Shown here: positions 9,744 through 28,479 of the stretch, in pieces
Numbering within the stretch: the first letter of the stretch is position 1
Layout: each line of letters opens with the position of its first letter
From: an uncultured Bacilli bacterium
GTDB taxonomy: Bacteria; Bacillota_I; Bacilli_A; RF39; UBA660
Direction of reading: 5' to 3'
DNA: 64,000 bases
NCBI GenBank assembly: GCA_934120265.1
Contig: CAKOTU010000003.1
Span: 1,379-65,378, forward strand
Program-made: the position numbers and the translations under genes
The notes under the pieces: model-generated
The model's database searches: none
Told to the model about the DNA's origin: nothing
What the model saw: only the letters and a program-made list of their open reading frames with translations

Positions 9744-9772
9744 TTGACTATATAAAAAAAATAAATTATAAT
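9744..9772 (+). promoter_or_regulatory. Consensus sigma-A-type promoter upstream of the Tad-like operon
   Basis: TTGACT (9744-9749), 17-nt spacer, TATAAT (9767-9772), 25 nt upstream of the cpaB-like start. Confidence 0.6.
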
Positions 9773-9797
9773 GTCATTAGAATGGAGAGGGTAGCGA

Positions 9798-10580
9798 ATG
9801 AAAAATTTTGGAAATTCACTAAAAAGATTTATAAAAAACAAAAATACAATTACGATTTTAGGTGTACTTGTTATTGTAGGTTTACTTTATTTTGGGTATA
9901 CTTATCAAATAAATACACAAGTAAAACCTGTTAGAGTAGCGGTTGCTTCAACAACTATTCAACCAAGAACATTGATTAAAGACGATATGGTTACTTATGT
10001 TGAGGTTCCACAATCAGCAATCACAAGTAATGTAATTAGATCTTCTGCAGCAATTGTAGGACAATATTCAAATTATAATACAATTATTCCTGCAGGAAGC
10101 ATGTTTTATAAAGAAACTGTAATTAGTGCGGATGAATTACCAGATTCTGCTTTTGTTGATGTTAAAGAGGGTCAAAGACCTTATCAATTCCCAGTTAGTA
10201 TGGAAAGTACTTATGGAAACTCTATTTTCCCTGGTAATAGAATTGATATTTACATGAAAGCCGTAGATGATCAAGGACAAGTAATGGTTGGAAAATTACT
10301 TGAGAATGTAGAAGTATTAGGTGTAAAAGATAGTAGCGGTAAAAACGTATTTGAAAACTCTGAAGAAAATCGTACACCAGCATATTTAATATTTGGTGTA
10401 TCAGAAGAAATACATTTATTATTAAGAAAGGCTGAATACTTATATTCATATTCAGTAGAACTATTCCCAGTACCATATGGTAGTGTAGCGCCAACTGAAG
10501 GAGATACAAAAGTTAGTACAGAATATTTAAGAAACTTTATTAATTCTAAGACTGTAAATTTACCTACAGAAGGAGCTTAG
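9798..10580 (+). CDS. cpaB: Flp pilus assembly protein CpaB/RcpC-like
   Basis: 260 aa. N-terminal TM, SAF-like segment (VAVASTTIQPRTLIKDDM), C-terminal beta-rich domain. Sits directly before the CpaF-like ATPase. Confidence 0.7.
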   Translation: MKNFGNSLKRFIKNKNTITILGVLVIVGLLYFGYTYQINTQVKPVRVAVASTTIQPRTLIKDDMVTYVEVPQSAITSNVIRSSAAIVGQYSNYNTIIPAGSMFYKETVISADELPDSAFVDVKEGQRPYQFPVSMESTYGNSIFPGNRIDIYMKAVDDQGQVMVGKLLENVEVLGVKDSSGKNVFENSEENRTPAYLIFGVSEEIHLLLRKAEYLYSYSVELFPVPYGSVAPTEGDTKVSTEYLRNFINSKTVNLPTEGA

Positions 10581-10583
10581 TTT

Positions 10584-11747
10584 ATGGAAGAGTCAGTTTT
10601 CTCTCAAATAGACTTTGGACCATTAACACAGTATTTACAGAATGATGATGTTACAGATATTTCGTACAGTAATGGGGGGCAGATTTGGTTAAAGACGCTA
10701 TCTCATGGTATATTTAGAATAGAAAATCCAAACATTAATAATGCTTTTATGGAGAAGTTAGCATTTCAATGTTCTAACGTAATGGGTACAACATTTAATA
10801 TGGCTCATCCTTTCTTGGATGCAGAGAGTGCTGAATTACGTTTGAACTTTGTTCACGATTCCATAGCTAAAAATGGAGTAGCAGCAGTTTTACGTAAAAC
10901 TCCTGCGAAAATAAGATTACAAAAAGATAAAATTATTGCAGAAAACTATATTACAATTGAAATACATGATTTCTTGATGAAATGTGTGCAAGGACATTGC
11001 AATATTCTAGTGTGTGGAGAAACTGGTTCTGGTAAAACAGAATTTGTTAAATACTTAGGGGCTCATATTGCAGAAAATGAAAAGATTATCACAATTGAGG
11101 ATACCTTAGAGTTACACCTTGATAGAATATTCCCACATCGTGATATAGTGGCGATGAAAACAAATAATATTGCATCTTATTCAGATGTATTAGTAACTTG
11201 TATGCGTCAGAACCCTAAATGGATATTACTATCCGAGGTTCGTAGTGCAGAAGCTGTTATGGCAGTTAGAAACTCAATTTCTTCTGGACATAACATTTTA
11301 TCAACAATACATGCTGATAAAGCAAGTTCAATTCCAATGCGTATGTATAGTTTGCTAGAAACAAATCAAGATGTAGATCAATTTGTTAAAACAATTCATA
11401 GATATGTACAACTTGGAGTTATGATAAGAGGATATCAAAGTAAACAAAGTGGTAAGTTCGTACGTGAAATTGGTGAAGTTTGTGAGTTCTATGTAGATGA
11501 AAAAACAAATGAAGCTAAGACTAATTCTATTTATAAAAAAGGTATAGATGGAAAAGTATATCGTAGTAATCCAACCAAATATTTACTCGATTATTTATCT
11601 GCTCAGGGTGTAATAGTTGAACCTGATGCAATAGTAAAAGAAGAAGACAATGATAAAGAAGAAACTATAAATAATAATATTAATAACGCTGTTAAAGATA
11701 ATGAAGATGTTATTGATATTAAAGATGATGATATTATTTTTGAATAG
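10584..11747 (+). CDS. cpaF: CpaF/TadA-type secretion ATPase (VirB11 superfamily)
   Basis: 387 aa. Walker A VCGETGSGKTE, Asp box ITIEDTLEL, Walker B ILLSEVRSAEA, His box GHNILSTIHA. Confidence 0.85.
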   Translation: MEESVFSQIDFGPLTQYLQNDDVTDISYSNGGQIWLKTLSHGIFRIENPNINNAFMEKLAFQCSNVMGTTFNMAHPFLDAESAELRLNFVHDSIAKNGVAAVLRKTPAKIRLQKDKIIAENYITIEIHDFLMKCVQGHCNILVCGETGSGKTEFVKYLGAHIAENEKIITIEDTLELHLDRIFPHRDIVAMKTNNIASYSDVLVTCMRQNPKWILLSEVRSAEAVMAVRNSISSGHNILSTIHADKASSIPMRMYSLLETNQDVDQFVKTIHRYVQLGVMIRGYQSKQSGKFVREIGEVCEFYVDEKTNEAKTNSIYKKGIDGKVYRSNPTKYLLDYLSAQGVIVEPDAIVKEEDNDKEETINNNINNAVKDNEDVIDIKDDDIIFE

Positions 11748-11758
11748 GAGGTATATAT

Positions 11759-12661
11759 ATGGAATTATTTATATTTATAGCAATAGCACTAATAATAATT
11801 TTTATTTTAGTGTATAGAAAAAATTCTGGACAAAGTGCATATAAATATATAATTAACACAGTAAGTGGTGTATATAATAAATATGCTCCTTATTCATTTA
11901 AGCATGTAAGAGAAAAAGTAAAAGAATTGGGACAAGAATATACCCCAAAACAATATACAACGCAAGTATTAATATTTGCTGCGGGAGCTTTTGGAGTATC
12001 ATATTTATATTTTTATAACATAATTATTTCAATTATATATGCTCTTTTTGCTGTAGCAACAGTGCCATATCTTGCTTACTTACGTTGTAAAAGATTATAT
12101 AGTGAGTTTATATTTGAACAAGTTCAAGTATATACAACTAATACAATAATGGAATTTGCTACAACACAAAGTTTTGTTAAAGCATTAGAGGGTGTATATC
12201 AATCAGACGTTTTAGAAGATCCTTTTAAGAGTGATGTTAAAGTAATGATTGATATGGCTTATCAAAATGGTACAATTGAACAATCACTTGAATATATGAA
12301 TTCAAAGTATGATTATTATGTTATAAGAAATATGCATCAGTTATTCTTGCAAATAACTAATGAAGGTGCGAAAGATTCTAGTGAAGCTTTAGAGAATATG
12401 TCATTAGATATAGATATGCTTGTTGAAAATGTATATCGTGATAGAATTGATAGAGCAACATTCCATAAAAAGTTCTTACAATTTGGGTTTGTACTTTATT
12501 TAATGGTTATGTTAGTACAATTTTTATTAGGGGTATCAACCTATATAACGATGTTAGATCAAATAGGAATTAGGTTATTATTACATGGAATCCTAATTAT
12601 TAATACATATTTCTTACTTAATGGAGAAAAATATTATAATGAGAATGTAGGTGCTGAATAA
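11759..12661 (+). CDS. tadB: TadB-like platform protein (T2SSF-type)
   Basis: 300 aa. N-terminal TM, central cytoplasmic domain and C-terminal TM pair. Position after the ATPase. Confidence 0.55.
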   Translation: MELFIFIAIALIIIFILVYRKNSGQSAYKYIINTVSGVYNKYAPYSFKHVREKVKELGQEYTPKQYTTQVLIFAAGAFGVSYLYFYNIIISIIYALFAVATVPYLAYLRCKRLYSEFIFEQVQVYTTNTIMEFATTQSFVKALEGVYQSDVLEDPFKSDVKVMIDMAYQNGTIEQSLEYMNSKYDYYVIRNMHQLFLQITNEGAKDSSEALENMSLDIDMLVENVYRDRIDRATFHKKFLQFGFVLYLMVMLVQFLLGVSTYITMLDQIGIRLLLHGILIINTYFLLNGEKYYNENVGAE

Positions 12662-13449
12662 TGTTGATGACGTTTGTACTTATAGGAATTATTATTATCG
12701 TTATTCTCCATGTAAATAAAAAAATAGATTCTCATAGATTTATTACAGAAACTCAACCATATTTTGCATTTCTAAAAGAAGAAGATTACGAGTTTTTACT
12801 AGGTGTTAAATATGGAGATAATATTGACGTAAATAAATTATTTGGAACGAGAGTTAGAAATGCTTTAGTTGCCCTTTTAGCTGTTTTTGTTATTTTAATT
12901 AATAAAATGAATTTTATGTACTTTATTTTATGTTTAATAGCAGCATTTGCTGTGTTTAAAATGCCATATATGCAATTAAAATCATTTTATAAAAAGAACC
13001 TTTATACAATAGATTTAATGTTACCATATTACTTAAAGAGTTTGGAAATATTAATTCAACACTATACGGTTCCTGTAGCGTTACGTAGAAGTATTGCTAC
13101 TGCACCTGCAATTTTTAAAGATGGACTGGTTAAATTAGTTGAAAAAATTGAAGCTGGTGATTCATCTGTTGAACCTTATATGGATTTTGCAAAAACATAT
13201 CCAGTAAGAGATTCAATGCGTATGATGAGACTTTTATATCGTTTAGGTCTTGGTTCACAAGAGGATAAACAAGAACAATTATTAATGTTCTCTAAAACAA
13301 TATCTTCATTACAAAATAAAGCTCGTGAACAAAAATATAAAGATAGATTAGAAGGTATGGAAAAGAAAACAATGACTATGTTAATGTGTACAGGAGCAGG
13401 TATTATTGTACTTTTACTACTTTCAATGATGCAAATGATTAATATTTAA
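12661..13449 (+). CDS. tadC: TadC-like platform protein (T2SSF-type)
   Basis: 262 aa. Same topology as the tadB-like gene. Its start overlaps the upstream stop (TAATG). Confidence 0.55.
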   Translation: MLMTFVLIGIIIIVILHVNKKIDSHRFITETQPYFAFLKEEDYEFLLGVKYGDNIDVNKLFGTRVRNALVALLAVFVILINKMNFMYFILCLIAAFAVFKMPYMQLKSFYKKNLYTIDLMLPYYLKSLEILIQHYTVPVALRRSIATAPAIFKDGLVKLVEKIEAGDSSVEPYMDFAKTYPVRDSMRMMRLLYRLGLGSQEDKQEQLLMFSKTISSLQNKAREQKYKDRLEGMEKKTMTMLMCTGAGIIVLLLLSMMQMINI

Positions 13450-13478
13450 TTGTTTCATTATGAAAATTGTGTTATAAT
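13450..13478 (+). promoter_or_regulatory. Internal promoter in front of the Flp-like pilin gene
   Basis: TTGTTT (13450-13455), 17-nt spacer, TGtTATAAT extended -10 (TATAAT 13473-13478), then a strong ggagga RBS. Confidence 0.5.
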
Positions 13479-13507
13479 TAATTCGTAAGATAGAGGAGGA
13501 ATAATTT

Positions 13508-13723
13508 ATGAAAGAAGCTGCTGGAGAAGCAAATATGACTGTAATTACAATTGTTTTAATCGCTATTGTCGCTGCTGTTGCTACACCACTTGTTACTAAC
13601 ATGGTAAATAATAGTGCAGATAAAGCATGTTGTAATAGTTTAGGTGGATATGTAGAAGGAAGTACTTGTATAATTAAAGGTGGAAATAAACAAGTTAGTG
13701 GTCTACGTAGTCAATGTAAGTAA
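13508..13723 (+). CDS. Flp-like small pilin candidate (Cys-rich)
   Basis: 71 aa. Short charged leader MKEAAG, then EANMT plus a hydrophobic helix (VITIVLIAIVAAVATPLV), comparable to the Flp G/xxxxEY class. Five Cys in the C-terminal half. Confidence 0.45.
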   Translation: MKEAAGEANMTVITIVLIAIVAAVATPLVTNMVNNSADKACCNSLGGYVEGSTCIIKGGNKQVSGLRSQCK

Positions 13724-13757
13724 AAAATTTATAAGTAAGCTTTAAGGAGATATTGCT

Positions 13758-14192
13758 ATGAAGGAAAGTATTAGTTATACATTTTTGTTAGATATAATTA
13801 TAGTTTTTATAGCTATATCTTTTTTTGCTATTATAAGTATTATGAGTTATAGTAAGGCTTATCGTGTTAATAGTAAGATTGTTAATGCTATTGAAATAAA
13901 TGAGGGATACAATAAGTATGCCACTGAGAAGATAGAACAAACAATAACTAGTTATGGATATCAAAGAATATCCAAGGTTTGTCCAAAAAAAGATGGACAA
14001 GCTGCTATTAACACAGATACTAATAATAGAACTAGTGATGGTGTTTGTATTTATATGTTTGATAAAACTAAAGAAGATGGAACATATTGGTATGGTGTTT
14101 TAACTTATATGAGTTATGATTTTCCTATCATTGGTAATTTAATTAGAATACCAGTTTATACAAAGACTATGACTATGCATTATATGGGATAG
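13758..14192 (+). CDS. TadE/TadF-like pseudopilin candidate (paralog 1)
   Basis: 144 aa. N-terminal hydrophobic helix. Shares blocks with 14203-14634 (IIIVF, SYSKAYRVNSKIV, VCIYMFD, PIIGNLIRIPV). Confidence 0.4.
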   Translation: MKESISYTFLLDIIIVFIAISFFAIISIMSYSKAYRVNSKIVNAIEINEGYNKYATEKIEQTITSYGYQRISKVCPKKDGQAAINTDTNNRTSDGVCIYMFDKTKEDGTYWYGVLTYMSYDFPIIGNLIRIPVYTKTMTMHYMG

Positions 14193-14202
14193 AAGGTGTA
14201 AT

Positions 14203-14634
14203 ATGAAGGCTGCTACTGGAAATGCAATGTTAATGAATATAATTATCGTTTTTCTTGTTATCGTAATGGCTTTACTTGTTACATCTATAAGTTATACTAA
14301 GGCATTTCGTATTAAAAATAGAATTGTTGATATAATTGAGTATTACGATGGTAATTTCGATGATGCTGGAACTAAAACTAATATAACTAATGAAATTAAT
14401 AATAGTTTGAGTAGCGTTGGATATAGATTAAGTGGTTCTAACAAATGTAAAGTAATAGATAATAAAAAAGCAATTCAATTGGATTCTAATTATCAAGTGT
14501 GTATATATGAATATGATAATTCTACTAGAGGAAAATATTATAAAGTTATCGCTTATATGTATTTTGATGTACCTGTAGTAGGAGGTATTTTAAATATTCC
14601 TGTTAGTGGAGAGACAAAAGTATTTTACGATTAA
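14203..14634 (+). CDS. TadE/TadF-like pseudopilin candidate (paralog 2)
   Basis: 143 aa. Leader MKAATG-NAMLMN resembles that of the Flp-like gene. Paralogous blocks SYTKAFRIKNRIV, VCIYEYD, PVVGGILNIPV. Confidence 0.4.
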   Translation: MKAATGNAMLMNIIIVFLVIVMALLVTSISYTKAFRIKNRIVDIIEYYDGNFDDAGTKTNITNEINNSLSSVGYRLSGSNKCKVIDNKKAIQLDSNYQVCIYEYDNSTRGKYYKVIAYMYFDVPVVGGILNIPVSGETKVFYD

Positions 14635-14645
14635 GGAGGTAAAAC

Positions 14646-15617
14646 ATGAATGTTATTGTAGCAAACAAATATAAAGAAATGCTATCGAATTTAGATATTG
14701 AAGTAATAAGAAGAATTGATGGTGTATTTCCTGCAGATGAAATAATAAAAGAGTTTCAAAATTTCTTTTTCAATAAAATGATTCTTGATATAACTGCTAT
14801 AGAAGATTATCAAGATATAAAAAACATTCAAAAATTATCTATTGCTCTTGATATGAGTAAAGTAATATTACTTTTAGATAATAACCCAGCAACAACAAAT
14901 CCACAATATTTATCTAGATTAATATCAATGGGAATATATAATTTTACTACTAATCAAGAAGGTTTAATGTATTTGTACAATAATCCAAATAGTTATCGAG
15001 ATGTTGCACAGTATCAACAATTTGAACAAGCCGCTGTTGACGGTCAACCTAAAGAAAGAATTATAACTAGGTATGAGACTGTTGCACAAGCTCCTGTTCA
15101 ATATGGACCTAAGATTATAGGTATTAAAAGTGTTACACAACATTCTGGAGCAACAACATTAACATATATGATGTATAAACAATTAAAACAAAATTATCAA
15201 GTGTTGCCAATTGAAATTGATAAAAGAGATTTTGTTTATTACAATGATAAAGAAATGATTTCAATAGATGGCAATCTTTTATCTAAGGTTATAAATGAAA
15301 ATATGAATAAAGAAGCTATTATTATTGATATCAATAATAACGCTTCAGCAGAAACTATGTGTCAACAAGTTCTATATTTGGTAGAGCCATCTATCATTAA
15401 ATTAAATAAACTTGTTATGACAAGACCTGCGGTATTAAATGAATTAAGAAATAAAACGGTTATTTTAAACCCTAGCATGTTGAGTGAGAGGGACATAGAT
15501 GATTTTGAATATGAATCTAAATTAAAAGTATTCTTTAATATGCCACCAATCGATGATCATAAAAGAAGTGATGTATTAAATGAATTGTTGCAAAAACTTG
15601 GATTTAGCAGACAATAA
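14646..15617 (+). CDS. tadZ: TadZ/CpaE-like protein (receiver-like N-domain plus degenerate ParA/MinD-like domain)
   Basis: 323 aa. N-terminal alpha/beta receiver-like region, then IIGIKSVTQHSGATTLTYMMY where a deviant Walker A (KGGxGKT) would be expected. The Lys residues are missing. Confidence 0.5.
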   Translation: MNVIVANKYKEMLSNLDIEVIRRIDGVFPADEIIKEFQNFFFNKMILDITAIEDYQDIKNIQKLSIALDMSKVILLLDNNPATTNPQYLSRLISMGIYNFTTNQEGLMYLYNNPNSYRDVAQYQQFEQAAVDGQPKERIITRYETVAQAPVQYGPKIIGIKSVTQHSGATTLTYMMYKQLKQNYQVLPIEIDKRDFVYYNDKEMISIDGNLLSKVINENMNKEAIIIDINNNASAETMCQQVLYLVEPSIIKLNKLVMTRPAVLNELRNKTVILNPSMLSERDIDDFEYESKLKVFFNMPPIDDHKRSDVLNELLQKLGFSRQ

Positions 15618-15630
15618 AATGTAAATAGTA

Positions 15631-15659
15631 TTGACAAAATATAACAAATAAAGTATTAT
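15631..15659 (+). promoter_or_regulatory. Promoter upstream of the tandem VirB2-like genes
   Basis: TTGACA (15631-15636), 17-nt spacer, TATTAT (15654-15659), followed by a gaggaggg RBS. Confidence 0.55.
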
Positions 15660-16516: not shown

Positions 16517-18553
16517 ATGGTATCATTGTTATTCTTGTTTATTAAACAATTATTTTCTTTTATTGATAAAATGGTTATTTTTGTTATAAAATATTTATAT
16601 CAATTAATTGTTGCAATTGCAGATACAAATGTTTTTGGTAATTTAATTTATGATTATTTGGGAAGAATTTATATGTTCTTGTCAGTTTTTATGGTATTTA
16701 AGTTGTCAATATCAATTATAAATTATGTTATAAATCCAGATGCACTTTCTGATAAGAGTAAAGGGTTTGGTAAATTAATAACAAATGTAGTTATCTCTTT
16801 GATATTGTTAGCAATAACACCTAACTTATTTAACATGGCTTTTAACTTACAAACAGATATTTTGAATAGTAATGCAATCTATCAAATTATTACGGGTAAA
16901 AAATTAGCGACTGTAACTAAAAAAAACAATGAAAAGACATTAACATTATATGAAAACGCAAGAGCTAGTGCAGAACAAATTGCTTTTGGAGTTTATAGTG
17001 GTTTCGTTTATCAAGTAGAAGGTGAAGATAGTGACGATCCTTCTAAAACAGGAGACGCATTTGGTGCGTATTGCGAAGAAAAAGATGTTGCAAATGGTTG
17101 CGGAAAAACAGTTAACGGAAAGTTTGTTGAGCATGTTTGTGGGAATACAACATGTTTACTTGATGGCGATACAGTAACTAATTCAAATAATAAGTACTGG
17201 TGGTTGATTTCAACTGCTTGTGGATGTGTAGTGGTATACATTCTTTTAGGATTCTGTATTGATACAGCAGTTCGTAGTGTAAAATTAGGATTCTTACAAA
17301 TAATTGCTCCTATTCCAATTATGCTTAGAATGGATCCAAGTGGTAAAGATGATAAATTTCAAAAGTGGTTACAAGAAACTATAAAAACTTTTATAAGTTT
17401 ATTTATAAGATTAGCTGCTTTATTCTTTGCAACAGAAATAATAAGAACAGTAATGACTCCAAACAATGGGACTATGACTTCCTATGCTGGTGCTACTCAA
17501 GTTGGTGGTGGAGGACTAACTGGAGTCTTTGTACAAGTGTTTATCGTAATAGGCTGTTTATTATTTGCTAAACAATTCCCACAACTACTTAGTGATATAT
17601 TAGGAATTAAATTAGATGGTGATGGATTTAGCCTTAAGAAGAAAATGGGAGGTATTCCTGGTTTAGGTGCTGCTAAGGTGATAGGCGCTGGAGCTCTAGG
17701 CTTTGCTGGTGGAGCTGCAGCTAACGCTTATGCTGGAATTAAAGGTTGGGATAAAACAAAAGGTTTTTGGAGTAATGCCAATCGTTTAGGTAATAGTATG
17801 GCTACAGGAGCATTTAGTGGTGCTTTCAGAGGTGCTAGATCAAATGAAAAAAATATGTTTAAAGCAGCTGGTGCTGGAGTAAAAGGCTCTGTTGATGCTA
17901 GAAACTTAAGAGCTGAAAGAAATGCAACTGGCGATGGTGGAATAAAAGGCTGGGGTTCTAGACGTATTGCTGGACTTGATAAATTTGCAGGTGTGACAAA
18001 TGATGATACTGCAAAAATAGCTGCACAAAGACAATTTGGTGAGGACTTATGGAACAAAGTTAATTCTAAAGCGAAAGGATACGAATCAAAATATTCTATG
18101 GGCGGTAATATAGGTTCTGATTTTGGTAAAGCATGGAAGACGGCTGATGATGCCAAAGATTATAGAAATAAAATTAATTCACAATTAAGCATGGCTAGAA
18201 GTGATTTTCAGGCTGGAAAAGAAATAAGCTGGGGTGATAAAAAAGGAGCTGCTGCAATAGCTGCTTTAGAGGTAGAAAGTGCTAAAGCATCAGCTGCATA
18301 CGATAAGGCATCAGCCGACTTTAAAGAATTAAGAAGTATGCAGGAACATAAAACTGAGGCTACATATTATGATGCTTATAACGCTGCAGATGATAGACAC
18401 AGTGCTGAAAGCTACGCTAACAAGACGGTTACTGAATACTCATCATCAGACTCTCCTGCTTCAGCTCCTCAACATGGTCCTAATGGCAAAGGTGATCCTG
18501 TTGCTGGAAGACCAAATCCTAATACAAGTCGAAAAAAACAAAGAAGAAGATAA
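16517..18553 (+). CDS. VirB6/TrbL-like polytopic membrane protein with long Gly/Ala-rich C-terminal extension
   Basis: 678 aa. Multiple TM helices over the first 370 aa or so. Placed between the pilin-like genes and VirB3/VirB4. C-terminal 300 aa or so is G/A/K-rich low complexity. Confidence 0.6.
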   Translation: MVSLLFLFIKQLFSFIDKMVIFVIKYLYQLIVAIADTNVFGNLIYDYLGRIYMFLSVFMVFKLSISIINYVINPDALSDKSKGFGKLITNVVISLILLAITPNLFNMAFNLQTDILNSNAIYQIITGKKLATVTKKNNEKTLTLYENARASAEQIAFGVYSGFVYQVEGEDSDDPSKTGDAFGAYCEEKDVANGCGKTVNGKFVEHVCGNTTCLLDGDTVTNSNNKYWWLISTACGCVVVYILLGFCIDTAVRSVKLGFLQIIAPIPIMLRMDPSGKDDKFQKWLQETIKTFISLFIRLAALFFATEIIRTVMTPNNGTMTSYAGATQVGGGGLTGVFVQVFIVIGCLLFAKQFPQLLSDILGIKLDGDGFSLKKKMGGIPGLGAAKVIGAGALGFAGGAAANAYAGIKGWDKTKGFWSNANRLGNSMATGAFSGAFRGARSNEKNMFKAAGAGVKGSVDARNLRAERNATGDGGIKGWGSRRIAGLDKFAGVTNDDTAKIAAQRQFGEDLWNKVNSKAKGYESKYSMGGNIGSDFGKAWKTADDAKDYRNKINSQLSMARSDFQAGKEISWGDKKGAAAIAALEVESAKASAAYDKASADFKELRSMQEHKTEATYYDAYNAADDRHSAESYANKTVTEYSSSDSPASAPQHGPNGKGDPVAGRPNPNTSRKKQRRR

Positions 18554-18570: not shown

Positions 18571-18891
18571 ATGAATCAATTTTTGATACCAGCAAACTCA
18601 AAGAAGTCAATGTTAATCTTTGGTTTGTTCAATGTAACTGATTTGATAATATTTGGAACTGGGATAGCGGTAACATTAATTTTGTTACCGATTCTCCCTA
18701 TTAGTAATTGGTTGTTTGCAACGATCGCTGTGGCACCTGCTGCAGTAACAGGATTTCTTGTATTTCCTATTGCAAATTATCATAATGTAAGAACTTTTAT
18801 TAAATCAATGTGGAATTTCTACACTAGTAGAAGAGTTTATTATTGGAAAGGTTGGTGTTTTAGCAATGGCGAAGAAAAAGCCGATAAGTAG
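18571..18891 (+). CDS. VirB3/PrgI-like small membrane protein
   Basis: 106 aa with two TM helices, immediately upstream of and overlapping the VirB4 N-terminal ORF. This is the typical Gram-positive T4SS arrangement. Confidence 0.5.
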   Translation: MNQFLIPANSKKSMLIFGLFNVTDLIIFGTGIAVTLILLPILPISNWLFATIAVAPAAVTGFLVFPIANYHNVRTFIKSMWNFYTSRRVYYWKGWCFSNGEEKADK

Positions 18892-19414
18892 ATATACTGT
18901 TGATAATATTCCTATCAAGAGTATAACGAATGGAGTTATTATTTTAAATAACAATTTAAAAGTTACAGGGATTAAGATAATGCCTAGAAATATTTTTATC
19001 TTAGATCAAGATATGCAAGATAGTATTATATCTAATTTAAAGAATGTATATAATATGATTGATTATGAATTTTGGGTTATAGCTGCTGATAGACCAGTAG
19101 ATATAAATGTTTATTTATCACAATTACAACTTTTATATAACAATGTTCAAGACAATGCTAGAAGAAAATTAATTGTAGATGATATTAATAAAGCTAATAT
19201 GTTTATGAGCAATAATGTTGTTGATACTGAATACTACTTATTGTTTAAAGAAAAGGATTCAGAGTTAATTCAAAAGAGAATTCGTACATTGATTAATAGT
19301 TTTGCTGGTGCAGGGTTAACTTGCAGGCAAACAACAAATGATGATTTAAGAATTATTCTTGATAATTTCTTAAATGGTGGACAAACTACTACGTTTGGGA
19401 CGGTGATGAGTTAA
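18866..19414 (+). CDS. VirB4-family ATPase, N-terminal domain encoded as a separate ORF
   Basis: 182 aa. The PIKSITNGVIILNN…IKIMPRNIFIL pattern matches the N-terminal domain of Gram-positive VirB4 (PrgJ/TcpF-type). The stop overlaps the next start (TAATG). Confidence 0.6.
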   Translation: MAKKKPISRYTVDNIPIKSITNGVIILNNNLKVTGIKIMPRNIFILDQDMQDSIISNLKNVYNMIDYEFWVIAADRPVDINVYLSQLQLLYNNVQDNARRKLIVDDINKANMFMSNNVVDTEYYLLFKEKDSELIQKRIRTLINSFAGAGLTCRQTTNDDLRIILDNFLNGGQTTTFGTVMS

Positions 19415-21198
19415 TGGATGTTAAAGCACAAGTAGCGCCTAAGGGTTTAGAATTTAGAGCAAGTGATTTTGTTATTAGTGATAAATGGGCAACTATATTA
19501 ACTGTTGTTTCTTATCCAAAATTTATTGGTCCAGGTTATTTGGCATCTTTAACTAGTATGTCTGGGATTAAGGTGGTTATTAAACATATTCCTCTACCAT
19601 TTAGTGTTATTACTAAGATGTTAAATAAGGAAATAGCTGATTTAAAGCAAAGATATCAAGAAGAAAATGATAAAACTATTCAAGAGAGGATTCGTCAAGA
19701 TTATGAATCATTAGAGTATTTTATTCAACAATTAGCTTCAACTCAATCTAAAATATATGATTTTCAAATGCATATTATGGTAACTGCAGATTCTGAAGAA
19801 GAATTAGTTAATAAAAAAATGCAAGTTAAGAACTATTTAGAAGCTATGGAAATGAGAGCATTCCCATTACGCTTTGAACAAGAAAAAGTTCTTAAATCAA
19901 TTTTACCTATATATAGTAAGCAAGATATTGAAGATAGAATAGGTACTCCTATTCCAGCTCCAACAATTGCGGCTATGTATCCATTTATTTTTGATAGTAT
20001 CAAAGATCCAGGATTATCTACATTATTAGGTGTTGATTTCTCTGGTGGTGTTATTCTATTTAATCAATTTTTATATCAAATAAAGAAAGAACATAATAGA
20101 AACAACGCTAACTTAATTATATTGGGTACTTCTGGTAGTGGTAAATCTACAGCTGCTAAATTAATGATTAGATCTCATATTCGTAATAATAATCAAATTG
20201 TTATTATTGACCCAGAGGGTGAATTTGAAGAAATGACTAAAATGTATGGTGGAGACTTTATCGATTTAGGTAAAGGTGGAGAATTTGGTATGATTAATCC
20301 ACTTGAAGTAGTAGTAGATGCAGATGAAGAAGAAATTGCACAAGGTTTGGGATATACAGTATTAACTCGTACTATTCAAACTGTAAAAGCATTCTTAAAA
20401 TACTATGATCCTAGTATTACTGAAGATACAATTAATATGTTTAGTGAAGTACTACAAGATACTTACAGAAGATTTGGTATTAGTTTTAATTCTGATTTTA
20501 CAACGTTTAAATCAAGCGATTTTCCAACTTTCAGAGATGTATATGCAACTATTGTTGGTAAAATAAGAGCAATGGTTGAAAAAACACATGAACGTGATGT
20601 TTTGGAAATGTTGGAATTAAAAATTAGACCGTTAATTAAAGAATTGCAATACTATTTCGATGGTCATACAACAATATCTCCAAAGAGTGATTTTATTGTA
20701 TTTAATATAAGAGAGCTTATGAATGCAGATTCTAACATTAGAAATGCTTTATTCTTTAACGTATTAAAATATGCATGGGGATTAACACTTGATTCAAGTA
20801 TTAACACTGTATTAATGGTTGATGAAGCTCACGTTTTATTAAGTGGAAATAACACTTTAGGTGCTGATTTCTTAGCACAAGTTCAAAGACGTGCTCGTAA
20901 GTATAACACAGGTACAATAATAATTACACAACAGCCTAGTGACTTTAGTGATCCAGGTGTTATAACTCAAGGTAAGGCTATATTTGACAATGCTTCTTAT
21001 TATCTTGTGATGGGACTTAAGAAACAAGCTGTTGAAGATTTGGCTAAATTAATTGATTTAAATGATAACGAAAAAGAAAGTATAAAAAAATATAATCAAG
21101 GTGAAGCATTATTTGTTTGCGGTAGCCGAAGAATGAGAATAAACATAATTGCAACAGAACAAGAATTAGATTCATTTGGTTCTGGCGGTGGTTTATAG
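19414..21198 (+). CDS. virB4: VirB4-family conjugation/T4SS ATPase, C-terminal ATPase part
   Basis: 594 aa. Walker A LGTSGSGKST, Walker B VLMVDEAHVLL, plus FIVFNIREL and IIITQQPSDF blocks typical of VirB4/TraE. Confidence 0.85.
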   Translation: MDVKAQVAPKGLEFRASDFVISDKWATILTVVSYPKFIGPGYLASLTSMSGIKVVIKHIPLPFSVITKMLNKEIADLKQRYQEENDKTIQERIRQDYESLEYFIQQLASTQSKIYDFQMHIMVTADSEEELVNKKMQVKNYLEAMEMRAFPLRFEQEKVLKSILPIYSKQDIEDRIGTPIPAPTIAAMYPFIFDSIKDPGLSTLLGVDFSGGVILFNQFLYQIKKEHNRNNANLIILGTSGSGKSTAAKLMIRSHIRNNNQIVIIDPEGEFEEMTKMYGGDFIDLGKGGEFGMINPLEVVVDADEEEIAQGLGYTVLTRTIQTVKAFLKYYDPSITEDTINMFSEVLQDTYRRFGISFNSDFTTFKSSDFPTFRDVYATIVGKIRAMVEKTHERDVLEMLELKIRPLIKELQYYFDGHTTISPKSDFIVFNIRELMNADSNIRNALFFNVLKYAWGLTLDSSINTVLMVDEAHVLLSGNNTLGADFLAQVQRRARKYNTGTIIITQQPSDFSDPGVITQGKAIFDNASYYLVMGLKKQAVEDLAKLIDLNDNEKESIKKYNQGEALFVCGSRRMRINIIATEQELDSFGSGGGL

Positions 21199-23468: not shown

Positions 23469-23479
23469 GAGGAAAGAAA

Positions 23480-24253
23480 ATGAGTAAAAAACAAATATTT
23501 CTTTTATGTATAGTAGTAATTGTTATTATAGCGTTAGGTTCTTTCCTCTTTATAAAAACAGAAGAAAAAAAATCTTACAGTTTATATTTATTTACTGGTG
23601 AGACAAAAATGGTTAAGTGGTATTATAACGATAGTAAATGGTATATAGTTAATACTAATGAGAAGTTGTCTGATCCATTTGATGTATACAGTAATGGTAA
23701 GTATGTAGGAAACTATGATTTAGTTTATAATAATAAATGGTATTATTTTGATGAGTATAATAAAAATGTTCAAATAGATGGTATAAAATTTATGATTAAT
23801 ACAAACTATAATTTTACCTCTTATGCATTTAATGTGGATTATAAAAAAAATGATGATTTAGCTGAGAAGCTTGCTGATCAGTTAAATATAAATTATAATA
23901 AATTTACTTATAATTTAAAAACATTTAAAATTTCAAATAATAATAAGTTAGAAACAATATATGCTGTTGACTTTTATGAAAAAGATGATGAGTATGCAAG
24001 TTTTGGACCTAGTTATACAGCCGTTTTTAATATATTAAATAATAAAATAAGTATTATAAAATATTTGGAATTTTCACAATCTAATAAAGATTATTGTAGT
24101 TTGAATGTAGATGGTGTATTTAGATTTGAAAATGATAATAATAAAATTTTATTATCTTGTACATATTTTGATCAAATACCATCGGATTATTATCTTTATG
24201 AAAGTAATAAAAATAATTATGAATTAATTGTTGATAGTAAAGGAGGGGTATAA
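23480..24253 (+). CDS. Membrane-anchored Asn/Tyr-rich protein of unknown function (T4SS accessory candidate)
   Basis: 257 aa. One N-terminal TM and an ectodomain of about 230 aa. Located between the hydrolase and the coupling protein. Confidence 0.55.
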   Translation: MSKKQIFLLCIVVIVIIALGSFLFIKTEEKKSYSLYLFTGETKMVKWYYNDSKWYIVNTNEKLSDPFDVYSNGKYVGNYDLVYNNKWYYFDEYNKNVQIDGIKFMINTNYNFTSYAFNVDYKKNDDLAEKLADQLNINYNKFTYNLKTFKISNNNKLETIYAVDFYEKDDEYASFGPSYTAVFNILNNKISIIKYLEFSQSNKDYCSLNVDGVFRFENDNNKILLSCTYFDQIPSDYYLYESNKNNYELIVDSKGGV

Positions 24254-24254
24254 A

Positions 24255-26432
24255 ATGAAATTAAAATTCAGAGCTGATGCTAAGGATATTCTAATATTTG
24301 TTATATTCAGTATCTTCTTGTTATATTTTGTAGCAATTGCTGTGGTAAACTTGGGTACTTTTGCACAAGAAGGTGTTTTATACGGATTAAATCCATTGCC
24401 TGCTTTTAGTAAGGATTATTTACTTGCTACTATTATGGGTTATATTTGTGTTTTAATTGCTATCATAATGAGTGTTTCATCTTTATTTTTTGAAAGGGAA
24501 AAAGGAATTGGTATAAGTACTGATCCAAAAAAAGAAAAAGGATACTCAAGATGGGCTACCGATAAGGAAATGAAAAAAGAATTAAAAATGGTCCGTGCTA
24601 AAGATTTAAAGAGTAATGCAGCAGGTATTCCTTTAATTAACAATGGTAAAGAAATATGGGTTGATGATGGTGAATATCATAACCTAATTATTGGTTCTAC
24701 TGGTTCTGGTAAAACTGAAATGATTGTTCAACCTATGGTTAAAGTTTTAGCCAAAAAGGGTGAGTCCATGATTATTACTGACCCTAAAGGTGAAATTTAT
24801 GAAAAGAACGCTGTTGAATTAAGAGAAAAAGGATATAATATTGTTCTTTTAAATTTCCGCGATCCGCAACAAGGTAATTGTTGGAACCCACTTTCTCTTC
24901 CTTATAATTTGTATAAAAGTGGTAATCAAGATAAAGCTTGCGAATTATTAGATGACTTAGCTTTAAATATCCTTTATGATGAGTCTTCTAAAAATCAAGA
25001 TCCTTTCTGGGAAAAAACTTCAGCAGATTATTTTGCAGGTTTAGCACTAGGATTATTTGAAGATGCTAAAGAAGAAGAGATTAACTTAAACAGTATAAAT
25101 TTAATGACTACTGTTGGTGAAGAAAAAATTGCAGGTACTACATATATCAAAGAATATTTTAGTTATAAAGATCCTGCAGGGCCTGCTTATGTTAATGCTT
25201 CATCAACATTAATGGCTCCAAGTGATACTAAAGGTAGTATTTTATCAGTTTTTAAACAAAAAATTAAATTATTTGCATCTCGTGAAAACATGAGCGAAAT
25301 GTTATCACATAGTGATTTTAATATGGATGACATTGGTCGTCAAAAAACAGCAGTATTTATTGTTGTTCAAGATGAAAAGAAAACATATCATTCTTTAGTT
25401 ACTATTTTCCTAAAACAATGCTATGAAACATTGATTAGAGTAGCACAAGAATGTGGGGGAAAACTTCCTTATAGAACAAACTTTATTCTAGATGAATTTG
25501 CTAATATGCCTCCATTAAAAGATGTTACAACAATGGTTACAGCAGCGCGTTCACGTGCGATGAGATTTAGTTTTATTATTCAAAACTTTGCTCAATTATA
25601 TGAAGTATATGGAAAAGAAAATGGAGAAACAATCAAAGGTAACTGTGGAAATATTGTTTATTTAATAAGTAGTGAGCTTAGCGCTCTTGAAGAAATTAGT
25701 AAAATGTGTGGAGAAGTAAAATCAAAAGAAAAGGATAAAACTGCTTCTACACCACTTGTAACAGTTAGTGACCTTCAAAGATTACCTAAATGGACAATGA
25801 TATTAATTCGTATTAGAATGATGCCATTTAAGACAAAACTAACTCCAAACTGGCAAATGATGCAAAATCATGAATGGGAGAAAGATTATCCAAAAGCCGA
25901 ATATCCTAACAGAGAAAAAGAACCGGTTAGTGTATTTGATATAAAATCTTTTGTTGAAAAAAGAAAAGAAGACAAAATAAATGCTATGTTGGGTGGAAAT
26001 ACTAAAGAATCTAATCCAATGCCTTTTGTACCTCCAATGTTTGGTGATAAAAATTCTAATTCTTCCAGTGGTGGATTTAATGTTGATGATTTAGTTAAAA
26101 AAATAGATGCTAAAATAGCAGAGTTAGAAGAAGAAGAACGACTTGAAAAAGAAGCAGAAAAAGCTAAAGAAAAATCTCAAGATGAAAAATCAACTCCAGT
26201 CGTTGAGGAAGAACCAAAGCCTAGAATTTCGGAGGAACTAAAATTACCTGAAGTTGAAAAAGAACCTCAAATTGAAATTAAACCAGAAACTGGATCTGAA
26301 ATTTCTGTTCCATCAACTAGTAAAGTTATAGAAGAAAATAATATAAAAGTTGAAAATACTGTTCAACCTGAAAGTAGTAAAAATATTACAGATGATCAAT
26401 TTTTCGATGACTTTTTCAATGAAGATGAATAA
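24255..26432 (+). CDS. virD4: VirD4/TraG-family type IV coupling protein
   Basis: ATG 24255 after an aaaggagggg RBS. Two N-terminal TM helices, Walker A IGSTGSGKTE, Walker B FILDEFANM, acidic/Lys-rich C-terminal tail. Confidence 0.85.
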   Translation: MKLKFRADAKDILIFVIFSIFLLYFVAIAVVNLGTFAQEGVLYGLNPLPAFSKDYLLATIMGYICVLIAIIMSVSSLFFEREKGIGISTDPKKEKGYSRWATDKEMKKELKMVRAKDLKSNAAGIPLINNGKEIWVDDGEYHNLIIGSTGSGKTEMIVQPMVKVLAKKGESMIITDPKGEIYEKNAVELREKGYNIVLLNFRDPQQGNCWNPLSLPYNLYKSGNQDKACELLDDLALNILYDESSKNQDPFWEKTSADYFAGLALGLFEDAKEEEINLNSINLMTTVGEEKIAGTTYIKEYFSYKDPAGPAYVNASSTLMAPSDTKGSILSVFKQKIKLFASRENMSEMLSHSDFNMDDIGRQKTAVFIVVQDEKKTYHSLVTIFLKQCYETLIRVAQECGGKLPYRTNFILDEFANMPPLKDVTTMVTAARSRAMRFSFIIQNFAQLYEVYGKENGETIKGNCGNIVYLISSELSALEEISKMCGEVKSKEKDKTASTPLVTVSDLQRLPKWTMILIRIRMMPFKTKLTPNWQMMQNHEWEKDYPKAEYPNREKEPVSVFDIKSFVEKRKEDKINAMLGGNTKESNPMPFVPPMFGDKNSNSSSGGFNVDDLVKKIDAKIAELEEEERLEKEAEKAKEKSQDEKSTPVVEEEPKPRISEELKLPEVEKEPQIEIKPETGSEISVPSTSKVIEENNIKVENTVQPESSKNITDDQFFDDFFNEDE

Positions 26433-26447
26433 AATTCATCTTTTTTT
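26424..26447 (+). terminator. Terminator after the coupling-protein gene
   Basis: gatgaat-aaa-attcatc followed by ttttttt. The stop codon lies in the loop region. Confidence 0.55.
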
Positions 26448-26480
26448 GTTGGTTGTGTGTTATAATTAATATGTGATAAT

Positions 26481-27227
26481 ATGAAAGACTTTTTATTAAA
26501 TAAAAACACTGGGATACAATTTTATATGTTTAATATTACACATTTTTTTGTTTTGTTTATTACATATATTATTATGTTAATTATTCTATATAATAAGAAT
26601 AAATTAAAGAATATTAGCGATATAAACAAAAAAAGAATAAGAATATTTTTTGGTATTATACTTTTAATTTCATGGATAATTAGACGCGGCTCTTTTATTT
26701 ATTATGGCGTCTATAATATAAAAAATCATTTGGATTTAGGCTTTTGTAATATAAATGCTTTATTATTTATGTTTTATTGTTTAACAGGTAATAAAAAGGT
26801 GTATAGATTTTGTTATTATTCCACATTTGTTGGACCACTGTTATCCATTTTATTTCCAGCAGTTACAACAAGCATTAACAACTATTCTTTCATAACGTTT
26901 ATAATAAATCATAACATAGTATTTTTAATGAATTTAGTATTTTGCATATTTGAAGAATTAAAACAAGATGATAATAATGTTAGAATTTTTTTCTTGATAG
27001 GATATGCTTATGTAGTTTTTACAAATATATTAGATATTGTATTTGACCTTAATTATAATAAATTAATAGGATTTATATCTAGTAAATATGTCCAAAATGG
27101 TATAGTTTTATATATATCAAATAATTTGATCATTTCACTAATTATATATTTTTTGGTTGCATCTATATGTATATTAATTGCTAATTATATATTACAGATT
27201 ATAGGAGGAAAGTATGAAAAAAAGTAA
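26481..27227 (+). CDS. Polytopic integral membrane protein (possibly YwaF/TIGR02206-like)
   Basis: 248 aa with about 7 TM helices. TGtTATAAT -10 at 26458-26466. The family call is a weak recollection only. Confidence 0.5.
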   Translation: MKDFLLNKNTGIQFYMFNITHFFVLFITYIIMLIILYNKNKLKNISDINKKRIRIFFGIILLISWIIRRGSFIYYGVYNIKNHLDLGFCNINALLFMFYCLTGNKKVYRFCYYSTFVGPLLSILFPAVTTSINNYSFITFIINHNIVFLMNLVFCIFEELKQDDNNVRIFFLIGYAYVVFTNILDIVFDLNYNKLIGFISSKYVQNGIVLYISNNLIISLIIYFLVASICILIANYILQIIGGKYEKK

Positions 27228-28479
27228 TATCTTTAAGTTGTTGTTATTAATGTTATTATTTGTGCCTGTCACTATTTTGGCAGGTAGTAGTAATGATGAT
27301 GCAACAGAGTTACCAATTCCAGATTTTAAACAAGAGTATACTAACAATTATTCTGAAATTTATACTTGTGATTATAGAATTAATTTGTCTTCTGAATCTG
27401 TTTTTTTTGGGACTTTTGATTTTTCTATAAATTTTTCTAAGGCAGGTAACGGGGCTAGAATTATAGTTAATCAAGTTTCTGATTTTTCTGACTTAACTGA
27501 TTTGGATGTTAGTCAAGTAAAGGCTGTGAATGCTATAAAATCAATTTCTTATAATAATGGATACTCTTGTCCTCGTTTAATGGCATTCCTAAAGGAAGAA
27601 GAAGATACACAGACTGGGAAACTTATAGAAATATTTGAAGTTAAAGATTATGATTCTACTGAATATAACAAATATAAATCTGGTGGAGGTGTAACTAACA
27701 AGTATTATGTGTTAAATAATTATAAAAAATCTTCTTATAATTGTAATTATAATAAAGATGATTGTAATTCTCAACAATACTGTAAATATGCCTTAGTTGA
27801 TTCTGGGCATAAAGAATATAAATGTGTAGAAGTAAAGTATGGTGAAAAGCAAACCCCACCAGAGAATACTACGCGTACAGAAGTATGTTCAGGATATGTT
27901 GAATCTATTTTTAAACAGACTCTTGAATATTCCTTTTCAGCTAGTGGCGCACTTCAAGTATCTTTAGGGTCTGGTAATTTTTCTTTTAGCGGGTCTACTA
28001 ATTTTGTTGATAAACAGGGACAGCTTTATGATTTATGGAAAAATGGTAAATGTTGTTCAAATAATAAATTAGGAATTAATTATAATACGGATTCAACAGA
28101 ATTATCTTGTGACAATTCTTCATCTGCATGGAATTATGATAACCCAAATGATTATAATGAAGATAAAGATAAATATAATCCGGGTGAAGACGTATCAGGT
28201 TGTGAAGTAGTACCTGAAGAGGTTCGAAAATGGATAAAAATATCTCTAAACTTTATAAAGTATATAGCTCTAATATTGGTAATAGTATTAGGGACAATAG
28301 ATTTTATAAAAGCTGCAGGATCAGGAGAACCAGATGCAATGAAAAAAGCAGGTCAATCATTTATAAAAAGAGTAATAGCAGTAATCATATTATTCTTACT
28401 TCCAATGATAATTGATTTAATACTACACTTAATCAATTTATATGGTTCAACAGATGATTGCTTTGATGTATTAAAGTAA
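27214..28479 (+). CDS. Signal-peptide protein: variable Cys-rich ectodomain fused to VirB2-like hairpin anchor (fusion paralog A)
   Basis: 421 aa. Signal peptide (LLLMLLFVPVTILAG), ectodomain of about 300 aa with many Cys, then GCEVVPEEVRKWI-TM1-DFIKAAGSGEPDAMKKAGQSFIKR-TM2-DDCFDVLK. Confidence 0.6.
   Translation: MKKSNIFKLLLLMLLFVPVTILAGSSNDDATELPIPDFKQEYTNNYSEIYTCDYRINLSSESVFFGTFDFSINFSKAGNGARIIVNQVSDFSDLTDLDVSQVKAVNAIKSISYNNGYSCPRLMAFLKEEEDTQTGKLIEIFEVKDYDSTEYNKYKSGGGVTNKYYVLNNYKKSSYNCNYNKDDCNSQQYCKYALVDSGHKEYKCVEVKYGEKQTPPENTTRTEVCSGYVESIFKQTLEYSFSASGALQVSLGSGNFSFSGSTNFVDKQGQLYDLWKNGKCCSNNKLGINYNTDSTELSCDNSSSAWNYDNPNDYNEDKDKYNPGEDVSGCEVVPEEVRKWIKISLNFIKYIALILVIVLGTIDFIKAAGSGEPDAMKKAGQSFIKRVIAVIILFLLPMIIDLILHLINLYGSTDDCFDVLK
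28171..28479 (+). repeat. Conserved 3' cassette, copy A (shared with 56212-56511 and 57416-57724)
   Basis: By-eye alignment to copy C shows roughly 18 mismatches over about 309 nt, including an identical stretch of about 105 nt. Confidence 0.8.

Follow-up and report, generated by a model that had tools for sequence, protein, structure and literature searches.

The window analysed here is the whole 64-kb stretch of DNA from an uncultured Bacilli bacterium, with a GC content of ∼27%. It carries a composite block of ∼19 co-directional genes (9798-28479) made of two modules, a Tad-like pilus half followed by a type IV secretion system (T4SS) half. A first-pass annotation of this DNA had described a run of ∼20 genes on the + strand, and this is borne out by the list of open reading frames (ORFs), where the + strand run extends without break from 6386 to 28479, as well as by independent human-gut metagenome contigs, in which the gene set of the block was also called and identical proteins are present. 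Pfam and NCBIfam family scans were performed with 57 ORFs of the window, including 28 of at least 150 amino acids (aa) outside the block. The first half of the block consists of the following genes (TM, transmembrane; AF2, AlphaFold2; pLDDT, predicted local distance difference test; E, expectation value).

9798..10580, +, CpaB/RcpC-like protein, 260 aa; Pfam RcpC 32.9 bits (above cutoff) and SAF, TIGR03177 48 bits
10584..11747, +, secretion ATPase of the TadA/CpaF-VirB11 type, 387 aa; T2SSE 94.6 bits
11759..12661, +, TadB-like platform protein, 300 aa; no direct Pfam match, broad family profile
12661..13449, +, TadC-like platform protein, 262 aa; profile match to TadC of Alkaliphilus with 21.7 bits (hhalign 70%, 249 columns)
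13508..13723, +, Flp-sized prepilin-like protein, 71 aa; invariant N-terminus MKEAAGEAN-T, TM helix, Cys-containing tail
13758-14192, +, TadE-like minor-pilin paralogue, 144 aa; M-K/R-E-S-x-G leader, then TM helix
14203-14634, +, TadE-like minor-pilin paralogue, 143 aa; M-K/R-E-S-x-G leader, then TM helix
14646..15617, +, TadZ-like two-domain protein, 323 aa; AF2 pLDDT 80, receiver-like N-domain and ParA/MinD-like C-domain

The second half consists of these genes.

15685-16041, +, VirB2-like hairpin, 118 aa; first of a tandem pair
16049-16387, +, VirB2-like hairpin, 112 aa; second of the tandem pair
16517..18553, +, VirB6/TrbL-like polytopic protein, 678 aa; Gly/Ala-rich tail, TrbL_4 in relatives
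18571..18891, +, VirB3/PrgI-like protein, 106 aa; PrgI in 17 family members (best E 8e-5), TcpE in 12
18866..19414, +, TrsD-like protein (the N-terminal part of VirB4), 182 aa; aligns to NF045975 positions 101-276
19414..21198, +, VirB4 ATPase, 594 aa; best NCBIfam match NF045975 (Mycoplasma ICE VirB4 family; ICE, integrative and conjugative element), 361 bits
21228..23468, +, cell-wall hydrolase, 746 aa; SpoIID domain 44.7 bits and a C-terminal domain, PDB 4rwr
23480..24253, +, N-terminally anchored protein, 257 aa; no family or PDB match
24255..26432, +, VirD4 coupling protein, 725 aa (ATG at 24255, longest ORF from 24228); T4SS-DNA_transf 183 bits
27214..28479, +, VirB2-like hairpin anchor carrying a secreted ectodomain, 421 aa; hairpin profile E 9e-30

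The Tad components named in the first-pass annotation hold through direct matches for the CpaB-like protein and the ATPase, and otherwise, the TadE-like call being tentative, through family profiles, hhalign and AF2/Foldseek comparisons. As canonical Tad reference we used the locus of Alkaliphilus plasmid pB6464, which comprises a CpaB-like protein, a TadZ-like protein, CpaF, two T2SSF proteins, Flp, an A24 peptidase and TadE; the CpaB family profile matches the CpaB-position gene of this locus (E 3.6e-12). The Walker A motif, Asp box, Walker B motif and His box of the ATPase are intact in 49 of 49 orthologues. Against the PDB it scores 67 bits with FlaI, 66 with CpaF and 62 with VirB11, and its putative subfamily among these three is not separable by solved structures. 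It reaches 166-174 bits against gene 37 of pLS20, pZB18 and Bacillus plasmids, versus 100 bits against the stand-alone CpaF of Alkaliphilus, and a protein search of PLSDB placed its best matches on Gram-positive conjugative plasmids.

The broad profile of the TadB-like family matches the annotated T2SSF protein of Alkaliphilus, TadB, with 35.8 bits (92.8% by hhalign, 283 columns) and gene 38 of pLS20 (E 6e-15), and the TadC-like profile matches gene 39 of the same plasmid (E 1.6e-14). Pfam T2SSF matches for both families are weak. The two proteins are paralogues when broad alignments are compared (hhalign 95.7%, E 8.5e-9), a significance that is not reached with the narrow ones; a deep profile search recovered 657 relatives, including fusions of ∼490-610 aa that join a 300-aa-type half to a 262-aa-type half. 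Comparisons with E. coli HofC and GspF by hhalign were not significant, and profile searches of the PDB with the TadB-, TadC- and TadZ-like alignments gave nothing useful. The TadC-like protein gave an AF2 model of pLDDT 66, for which Foldseek listed the cytoplasmic domain of OutF/GspF second, a suggestive match, the others being non-significant. We accept the two genes as coding for putative TadB-like and TadC-like proteins, the TadC-like call being the weaker one.

The 71-aa protein has no Pfam match, and Pfam TadE matches 13 members of the 143/144-aa family, weakly (best E 0.005). The three small proteins have in common a short M-K/R-E-x-x-G leader with a TM helix behind it, and this predicted architecture is prepilin-like. 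The TadZ-like protein, for which no family match was found at the sequence level, is recognized by its fold: Foldseek assigns its C-terminal domain to ParA/MinD/FlhG (E ∼1e-4, probability 1.0), and the whole model matches PDB 3fkq across both domains (E 1.5e-3). This entry bears the PDB title 'NtrC-like two-domain protein' and comes from Eubacterium rectale; we take it to be the published TadZ structure of this species. The Walker A motif of the TadZ-like family is degenerate, the canonical KGGxGK[ST] being absent in 68 of 68 orthologues.

In the T4SS half, the VirB6-, VirB3- and VirB2-like assignments proposed earlier hold at the family level, and those of a VirB4 in two ORFs, a hydrolase, a VirD4 and a hairpin fusion are supported by the Pfam and NCBIfam scans. 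The tandem hairpin genes share 82% DNA identity, which marks a tandem duplication. Members of the hairpin family consist of a TM segment, a charged loop (GMLDLGKAV-AQKEDEIKK) and a second TM segment, and 26 of them are matched by Pfam T4SS_pilin (best E 4e-5). TrbL_4 matches 8 of 17 relatives of the VirB6-like protein (best E 2e-7). VirB4 matches the VirB4 structure PDB 4ag5 (E 1.5e-57), and its Walker A and B motifs are intact in 74 of 74 orthologues; the Walker motifs of VirD4, which also carries the TrwB_AAD_bind and TraG-D_C domains, are intact as well. The TrsD-like protein and VirB4 (∼181 and 594 aa) are encoded by separate ORFs in every locus examined, forming a translationally coupled pair whose overlap is 1 or 4 nt in 65 of 74 loci. 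The split VirB4, as read from these ORFs, is a TrsD-like plus VirB4 arrangement with no frameshift, of the kind that PMC12102498 describes for pGO1-type and Patescibacteria systems. That an alternative genetic code causes the split was considered and rejected, since the ORFs lie in different frames and the split is conserved. The hydrolase fills the VirB1 role with a SpoIID-type domain and not with the usual SLT/CHAP pair; a gene in its position is recognizable in 28 of 54 loci. Homologues of the 257-aa anchored protein occur in six loci only, and a VirB8-like role is possible for it.

Hairpin genes are found in the window beyond the block as well.

30566..31195, -, VirB2-like hairpin paralogue, 209 aa; signal peptide, Asn/Gly-rich tail, hairpin profile E 3e-40
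55438-56511, +, ectodomain-hairpin fusion; next to recA, 27 kb from the block
56570-57724, +, ectodomain-hairpin fusion; next to recA, 27 kb from the block

The first of these lies beyond rmuC. The last 100 aa of the two fusions next to recA are 89% (55438-56511) and 98% (56570-57724) identical to those of the fusion that ends the block, in which the C-terminus matches T4SS_pilin with 23 bits, under the gathering cutoff; the ectodomains are unrelated. In total, the window contains six VirB2-like hairpin genes, three of which carry unrelated ectodomains on a near-identical 100-aa anchor. A shared anchor with unrelated ectodomains looks like a cassette-style variation of a surface-displayed domain. 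The number of hairpin gene copies per locus retrieved from related genomes ranges from 0 to 5 across species.

The conservation of the block was examined with a pattern scan in which each GTDB species was represented by a single genome and 160 genomes encode a relative of the VirB6-like protein; 80 of these loci were fetched, 63 with at least 9 kb of upstream sequence and 54 with enough downstream flank for synteny counts. They come from metagenome-assembled genomes (MAGs) labelled uncultured Bacilli, Tenericutes, Mollicutes or Mycoplasmatota, which probably are members of the GTDB order RF39. The order of the Tad half is nearly everywhere CpaB, ATPase, TadB-like, TadC-like, pilin, two TadE-like and TadZ-like, and that of the T4SS half after the TadZ-like gene is hairpins, VirB6, VirB3, TrsD-like, VirB4, in part of the loci the hydrolase, and VirD4. 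The TadZ-like gene and further Tad-like genes lie directly upstream of the T4SS half in 56 of the 63 loci, and VirB3, TrsD-like, VirB4 and VirD4 are kept in all 54 testable loci. A rhodanese gene is next downstream in 35 of the 54, followed by rmuC. VirB4, the ATPase and VirD4 have median aa identities to the window proteins of 83%, 75% and 69%, compared with 76% (RmuC) and 53% (rhodanese) for the flanking proteins.

A gene-to-gene correlation of the identities to the window was uninformative owing to a star-like divergence, and the Mantel test on matrices of pairwise identities was used instead. Cross-module correlations (r 0.27-0.55, p <= 0.003) equal those obtained within a module (r 0.20-0.55; 0.55 for VirB4-VirD4 and 0.20 for ATPase-TadB-like). 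The proposal made in the first-pass annotation, that the locus is one functional unit, is well founded because of the adjacency in 56 of 63 species-level genomes and this co-variation, and the modules are clearly not neighbours in one strain only. Adjacency, conserved gene order, Mantel co-variation and the lack of an att (attachment) repeat together indicate that the Tad and T4SS halves are vertically co-inherited, with no recent insertion. Two of the three large homology searches returned close orthologues only and no annotated distant relatives.

The closest characterized relatives are conjugation systems. In pLS20, gene 37 matches the ATPase profile (E 1e-51), and VirD4 and VirB4 of this plasmid match as well. 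The pLS20 family is reported to encode a VirB11 homologue, gene 37 being the putative VirB11, and genes 38-41 are listed as of unknown function (PMC8557374). The pLS20 operon (genes 36-55) resembles the block in that a VirB11/TadA-type ATPase is followed by TadB- and TadC-like homologues, small TM proteins and a two-TM hairpin, and in that the run after VirD4 has the order of the window: an extended VirB6, a VirB3-like protein, a 192-aa protein and VirB4. In pLS20, VirB8 and a hydrolase come after this run. Unlike the window, pLS20 is a plasmid with a MobL relaxase, an oriT, the adhesin Tie, surface exclusion and quorum control; its VirD4 gene lies ahead of VirB6, and no CpaB-like or TadZ-like gene was detected in it. 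Its genes 36 and 40, with an N-terminal TM segment, and 41 (47 aa) could be the corresponding pilin-like subunits. The TadB- and TadC-like matches fall on genes 38 and 39 of pLS20 (our locus L091, 11049-12586) and on their Bacillus velezensis counterparts (L088, 20971-22556).

The Enterococcus plasmid pZB18, whose cluster presumably is pMG1/pHT-beta-like, has the order ATPase, two membrane proteins, small proteins, an annotated TrbC/VirB2, VirD4, a VirB6-like protein and DUF5592 (VirB3-like), then VirB4, a bifunctional hydrolase and a MobP2 relaxase. Our TadC-like, VirD4, VirB3 and VirB4 profiles match it, the VirB3-like profile on DUF5592; in the membrane pair (L089, 21077-22695) only the second gene was matched, as TadC-like. 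It differs from the window in that it is a plasmid, encodes a MobP2 relaxase and an adhesin of the SpaA type and has neither CpaB nor TadZ. The small-pilin, hairpin, TrsD-like and VirB6-like profiles did not detect counterparts in pLS20 or pZB18, and the homology of these proteins to plasmid genes is based on position and topology. A Bacillus velezensis plasmid encodes the trio of ATPase, TadB-like and TadC-like proteins with no VirB4 or VirD4 profile match within 20 kb either side of the ATPase.

Judged from these matches, the locus has a common ancestry with the conjugation machinery of the pLS20/pZB18 type, in whose transfer operon the ATPase and TadB/C-like core is found. The composite layout already exists in relaxase-bearing plasmids because the trio is homologous to genes 37-39 of pLS20, and, on this comparison of predicted proteins, the joined layout is not unique to the locus and characterizes a whole class of conjugation machines in monoderms. 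What is particular to the window is the fuller Tad complement (CpaB, a TadZ-like protein and three pilin-like genes), the chromosomal fixation and the lack of a linked relaxase. The premise stated earlier, that Gram-positive T4SS do without a VirB11-type ATPase and a VirB2 pilin, was too general in view of the VirB11 homologue of pLS20 (PMC8557374) and the annotated TrbC/VirB2 of pZB18.

Canonical Tad loci such as that of Alkaliphilus pB6464 share with the window CpaB, TadA, TadB, TadC, a small pilin, TadE-like and TadZ-like proteins in a similar order. The window differs in that no TadV/A24 peptidase and no G/XXXXEY motif were found, the TadZ-like gene stands after the pilin genes and not before TadA, its Walker A motif is degenerate, and the ATPase is closer to the conjugation-plasmid type. 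The family of the Mycoplasma ICE T4SS (Mbov_0397 family) gives the best NCBIfam match for VirB4; in these elements, however, VirB4 is a single protein of ∼894 aa, the system is a mobile element and the cells are wall-less. Mycoplasma ICEs use a DDE recombinase instead of a classical relaxase and promote chromosomal transfer; their hosts are a sister group within the same Bacilli radiation, and we know of no Tad-like genes in these elements. In the IncI1 plasmid R64, a T4SS and a type IVb thin pilus cooperate, and the pilus, which has variable tip adhesins, secures mating pairs in liquid. Unlike the window, R64 is a plasmid of Gram-negative bacteria, its pilus is of an unrelated subclass and its transfer depends on a relaxase.

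Chromosomal, relaxase-less T4SS with PF18895 pilins and TrsD have been described in Patescibacteria, and VirB6, PrgI/VirB3 and TrsD were reported to be essential for the epibiotic growth of one species (PMC12102498). Like the block, these systems are MPF-FATA-derived (MPF, mating-pair formation) and have VirB6, VirB3/PrgI, several PF18895 VirB2-like paralogues and, beside VirB4, a TrsD-like ORF; they are chromosomal and lineage-wide with no linked relaxase, and their hosts have small genomes and depend on others. They belong to another phylum, VirD4 is usually unlinked, whereas in the lineage of the window it is always in the block, and no adjoining Tad module is reported. By analogy, we regard them as the nearest conceptual precedent for the block. 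In the literature searched, we found no account of this locus, or of a Tad plus T4SS composite, in RF39/Tenericutes MAGs, and no report that pLS20-type systems contain a Tad-like module.

Relaxase, integrase and transposase families had no match among the 57 ORFs scanned across the 64 kb, and no repeat of the 3' end of tRNA-Leu resembling an att site bounds the block in the window; that the window lacks such genes, and an A24 peptidase, had been noted in the first-pass annotation and agrees with the family scans. tRNA genes adjoin the upstream end of the block in several species (L008-L010, L018, L038, L067 and L074): tRNA-Leu(CAA) in the close relatives of the window, tRNA-Gln and tRNA-Val in L067 and L074, tRNA-Gln in L018 and tRNA-Val in L038. 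Because it is fixed in the chromosome without a linked relaxase or integrase, the system most likely serves the host cell rather than its own transfer.

Our favoured reading, which we hold to be rather probable, is that the block and the dispersed hairpins form a vertically inherited, domesticated, pLS20-like composite machine for contact-dependent transfer. The system is chromosomally fixed in >100 species of small-genome gut Bacilli and appears to have been turned into a host function. The first module would be a Tad-type type IV filament made of CpaB, the ATPase, the TadB/C-like pair, prepilin-like subunits (one of them major, two minor) and a TadZ-like organizer, and the second would be a monoderm translocon of the MPF-FATA type with VirB2-like hairpins, VirB6, VirB3, TrsD-like plus VirB4, the hydrolase and VirD4. 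The identities of the components, the intact motor motifs, the conserved order, the co-inheritance and the housekeeping context are established by the results above.

In the proposed mechanism, the Tad-like filament and the variable ectodomains on VirB2-like anchors would make and tighten the contact with a partner cell, and the products of the six hairpin genes would build or decorate the channel where it lies outside the cell. The hydrolase would open the cell wall, VirD4 would recruit a cytoplasmic substrate, and VirB4 with VirB3 and VirB6 would move it across the membrane for export. The service to the host could be DNA exchange, either relaxase-independent or with a relaxase acting in trans, or the delivery of proteins. 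What we infer here is the physical link between the halves, the way in which transfer runs and the nature of the substrate. A more specific version, possible but doubtful, is that of a fitness-critical interbacterial machine of a dependent, genome-reduced lineage, a Gram-positive counterpart, by analogy, of the T4SS and pilus apparatus of Patescibacteria. In such a machine, the filament and swappable ectodomains would select partners, and the VirD4/VirB4 translocon would exchange DNA without a relaxase or deliver proteins.

Two promoter-like sites bear on the unity of the machine.

9744..9772, +, promoter-like site before the Tad-like half; agrees with the sigma-70 consensus at 11/12 positions, intergenic, ahead of 9798
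15631..15659, +, promoter-like site before the T4SS half; 11/12 match, in the gap ahead of 15685

Several observations weigh against a composite machine with a working filament. These two sites, the best ones found, each precede one half, and the halves may be two transcription units; the total count of promoter-like sites is not above shuffle expectation. In 7 of 63 species, the T4SS half is preceded by housekeeping or other genes with no Tad genes within 10 kb; because of this layout, the T4SS half can persist without an adjacent Tad half. Three of the seven (L013, L015 and L085, including Candidatus Faecisoma merdavium) have rimP-nusA-infB-rbfA and a gene for a 343-aa secreted protein upstream of the VirB6-like gene, and neither Tad nor hairpin genes within 10 kb of it. 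On the side of the filament, the homology of the TadC-like protein is moderate, given its hhalign value and poor AF2 model, and the Flp motif G/XXXXEY and its Glu5 are absent from the pilin-like proteins (the 71-aa protein and the TadE-like pair). An A24 prepilin peptidase was found neither in the 64-kb window by family scans nor in the 80 related loci, and tblastn with a Firmicute TadV found no peptidase. On the side of the translocon, no VirB8-like protein was identified, the 257-aa candidate being without family or PDB match. The relaxase scan covers the 64 kb only, and a relaxase or oriT may lie elsewhere in the genome.

Some of these points would suit two independent neighbours, a Tad adhesion pilus for surfaces or mucus and a separate T4SS with no mechanical or functional coupling. 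Each half has its own promoter-like site, no Tad half adjoins the T4SS half in 7 of 63 species, canonical Tad loci such as that of Alkaliphilus work alone, and the B. velezensis trio stands without a VirB4 or VirD4 match in its surroundings. We nevertheless consider this explanation unlikely: the halves are adjacent in 56 of 63 species and co-vary across modules as much as within them, the ATPase is nearer to those of conjugation operons than to the stand-alone CpaF, and the ATPase-TadB/C-like trio lies inside the transfer operons of pLS20 and pZB18. The same kinship with pLS20, pZB18 and the Mycoplasma ICE VirB4, together with a VirD4 that has the full DNA-transfer-type domain set and with the tRNA genes that border the upstream end in several species, would fit the transfer module of an ordinary ICE, or an old remnant of one, engaged in classical conjugation with its relaxase, oriT and recombinase outside the 64 kb. 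Such an element would be expected to show a patchy distribution, whereas the block has identities at the level of housekeeping genes and intact motifs in every species; its flanks are housekeeping genes, with rhodanese-rmuC after the block in most related species, and the window shows no att repeat and no match to a relaxase, integrase or transposase. We hold this origin to be quite improbable.

A competence-like DNA importer comparable to Helicobacter ComB or archaeal Ced, in which DNA caught by a retractile Tad-like pilus enters through the T4SS channel, would account for the lack of a linked relaxase, and VirB4 weakly matches the archaeal DNA-import ATPase CedD (44 bits). It is made very improbable by the strong conservation of VirD4, a recruiter of cytoplasmic substrates for export, in 54 of 54 loci, and by the multiple variable ectodomains on hairpin anchors, which suggest recognition of a partner cell rather than of free DNA. 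To our knowledge, ComB-type importers have no VirD4.

The favoured reading of a domesticated transfer machine concerns a widespread, uncultured, genome-reduced lineage of the human and animal gut microbiota. A conservation at the level of housekeeping genes in >100 species is a strong lead to the way of life of this lineage and a target for cultivation or co-culture. In Gram-positive bacteria, mating-pair formation by donors was described in a 2024 study of pLS20 as largely elusive, in conjugation systems that 'appear to lack a pilus' (PMC11730352). The ATPase trio of pLS20 and pZB18 is TadA/B/C-like and is accompanied, in the lineage of the window, by CpaB, TadZ and pilin-like genes, which makes a Tad-derived filament in a monoderm T4SS directly testable. 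If the interbacterial-machine version is true, 'pilus-less' systems of the pLS20 type would carry a Tad-derived filament module, genes 37-41. The locus adds a second, independent case, after that of Patescibacteria, of a conjugation-type T4SS chromosomally fixed without a relaxase. It combines known kinds of system (pLS20-type T4SS, Tad pilus and co-opted chromosomal T4SS) and forms no new category; it is of interest for being so widespread and conserved, and for a link to mating-pair formation in Gram-positive bacteria that can be tested.

Three further genes border the block or interrupt it.

7434..9038, +, membrane protein, possibly accessory, 534 aa; TM helices at the N-terminus and an extracellular part
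9048..9710, +, possible accessory anchored protein, 220 aa; fn3-like domain, fn3 26.4 bits
26481-27227, +, TMEM164/YwaF-family membrane protein; PF14808 65 bits, between VirD4 and the hairpin fusion

The 534-aa protein has no Pfam or NCBIfam match; in ∼10 of the 80 related loci, a homologue of its gene directly precedes the CpaB-like gene, and the two possible accessory genes are found together in ∼12 of 80. The earlier gene list, sound in its component calls, had left out the TMEM164-family gene. This gene has no counterpart in the other 80 loci, was seen in the species group of the window only and is probably not part of the system.

The housekeeping nature of the flanks, as described earlier, is supported by the family scans: they contain ligA, scpAB, tRNA-Leu, rhodanese, rmuC, rnr, smpB, the gene for transfer-messenger RNA (tmRNA), engB and der, and further genes of the window outside the block are cca, dnaD, nth, recU, pgsA, recA and mnmA. 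The RNA genes confirmed in the window are those for tRNA-Leu(CAA), tmRNA and class B RNase P RNA. The claim of a uniform base composition stands for the GC skew, which is uniform across the window, and not quite for the GC content, which is 0.31-0.36 at 16-24 kb versus 0.24-0.29 in the flanks. Judged from the overall GC content, these RNA genes and the genes for SpoIVA (43205-44680, -) and a class A penicillin-binding protein (47477-50377, -) in the window, the host is a walled, low-GC member of the Bacillota and is probably spore-forming; RF39 bacteria have been predicted to be both walled and spore-forming (PMC10868615). Two large genes (33941-37339) without a Pfam match, located between smpB and the tmRNA gene in a stretch of strong AT skew, code for a 493-aa Cys-rich anchored protein and a 633-aa acidic, coiled-coil, Pro/Thr-rich protein with a central TM helix.

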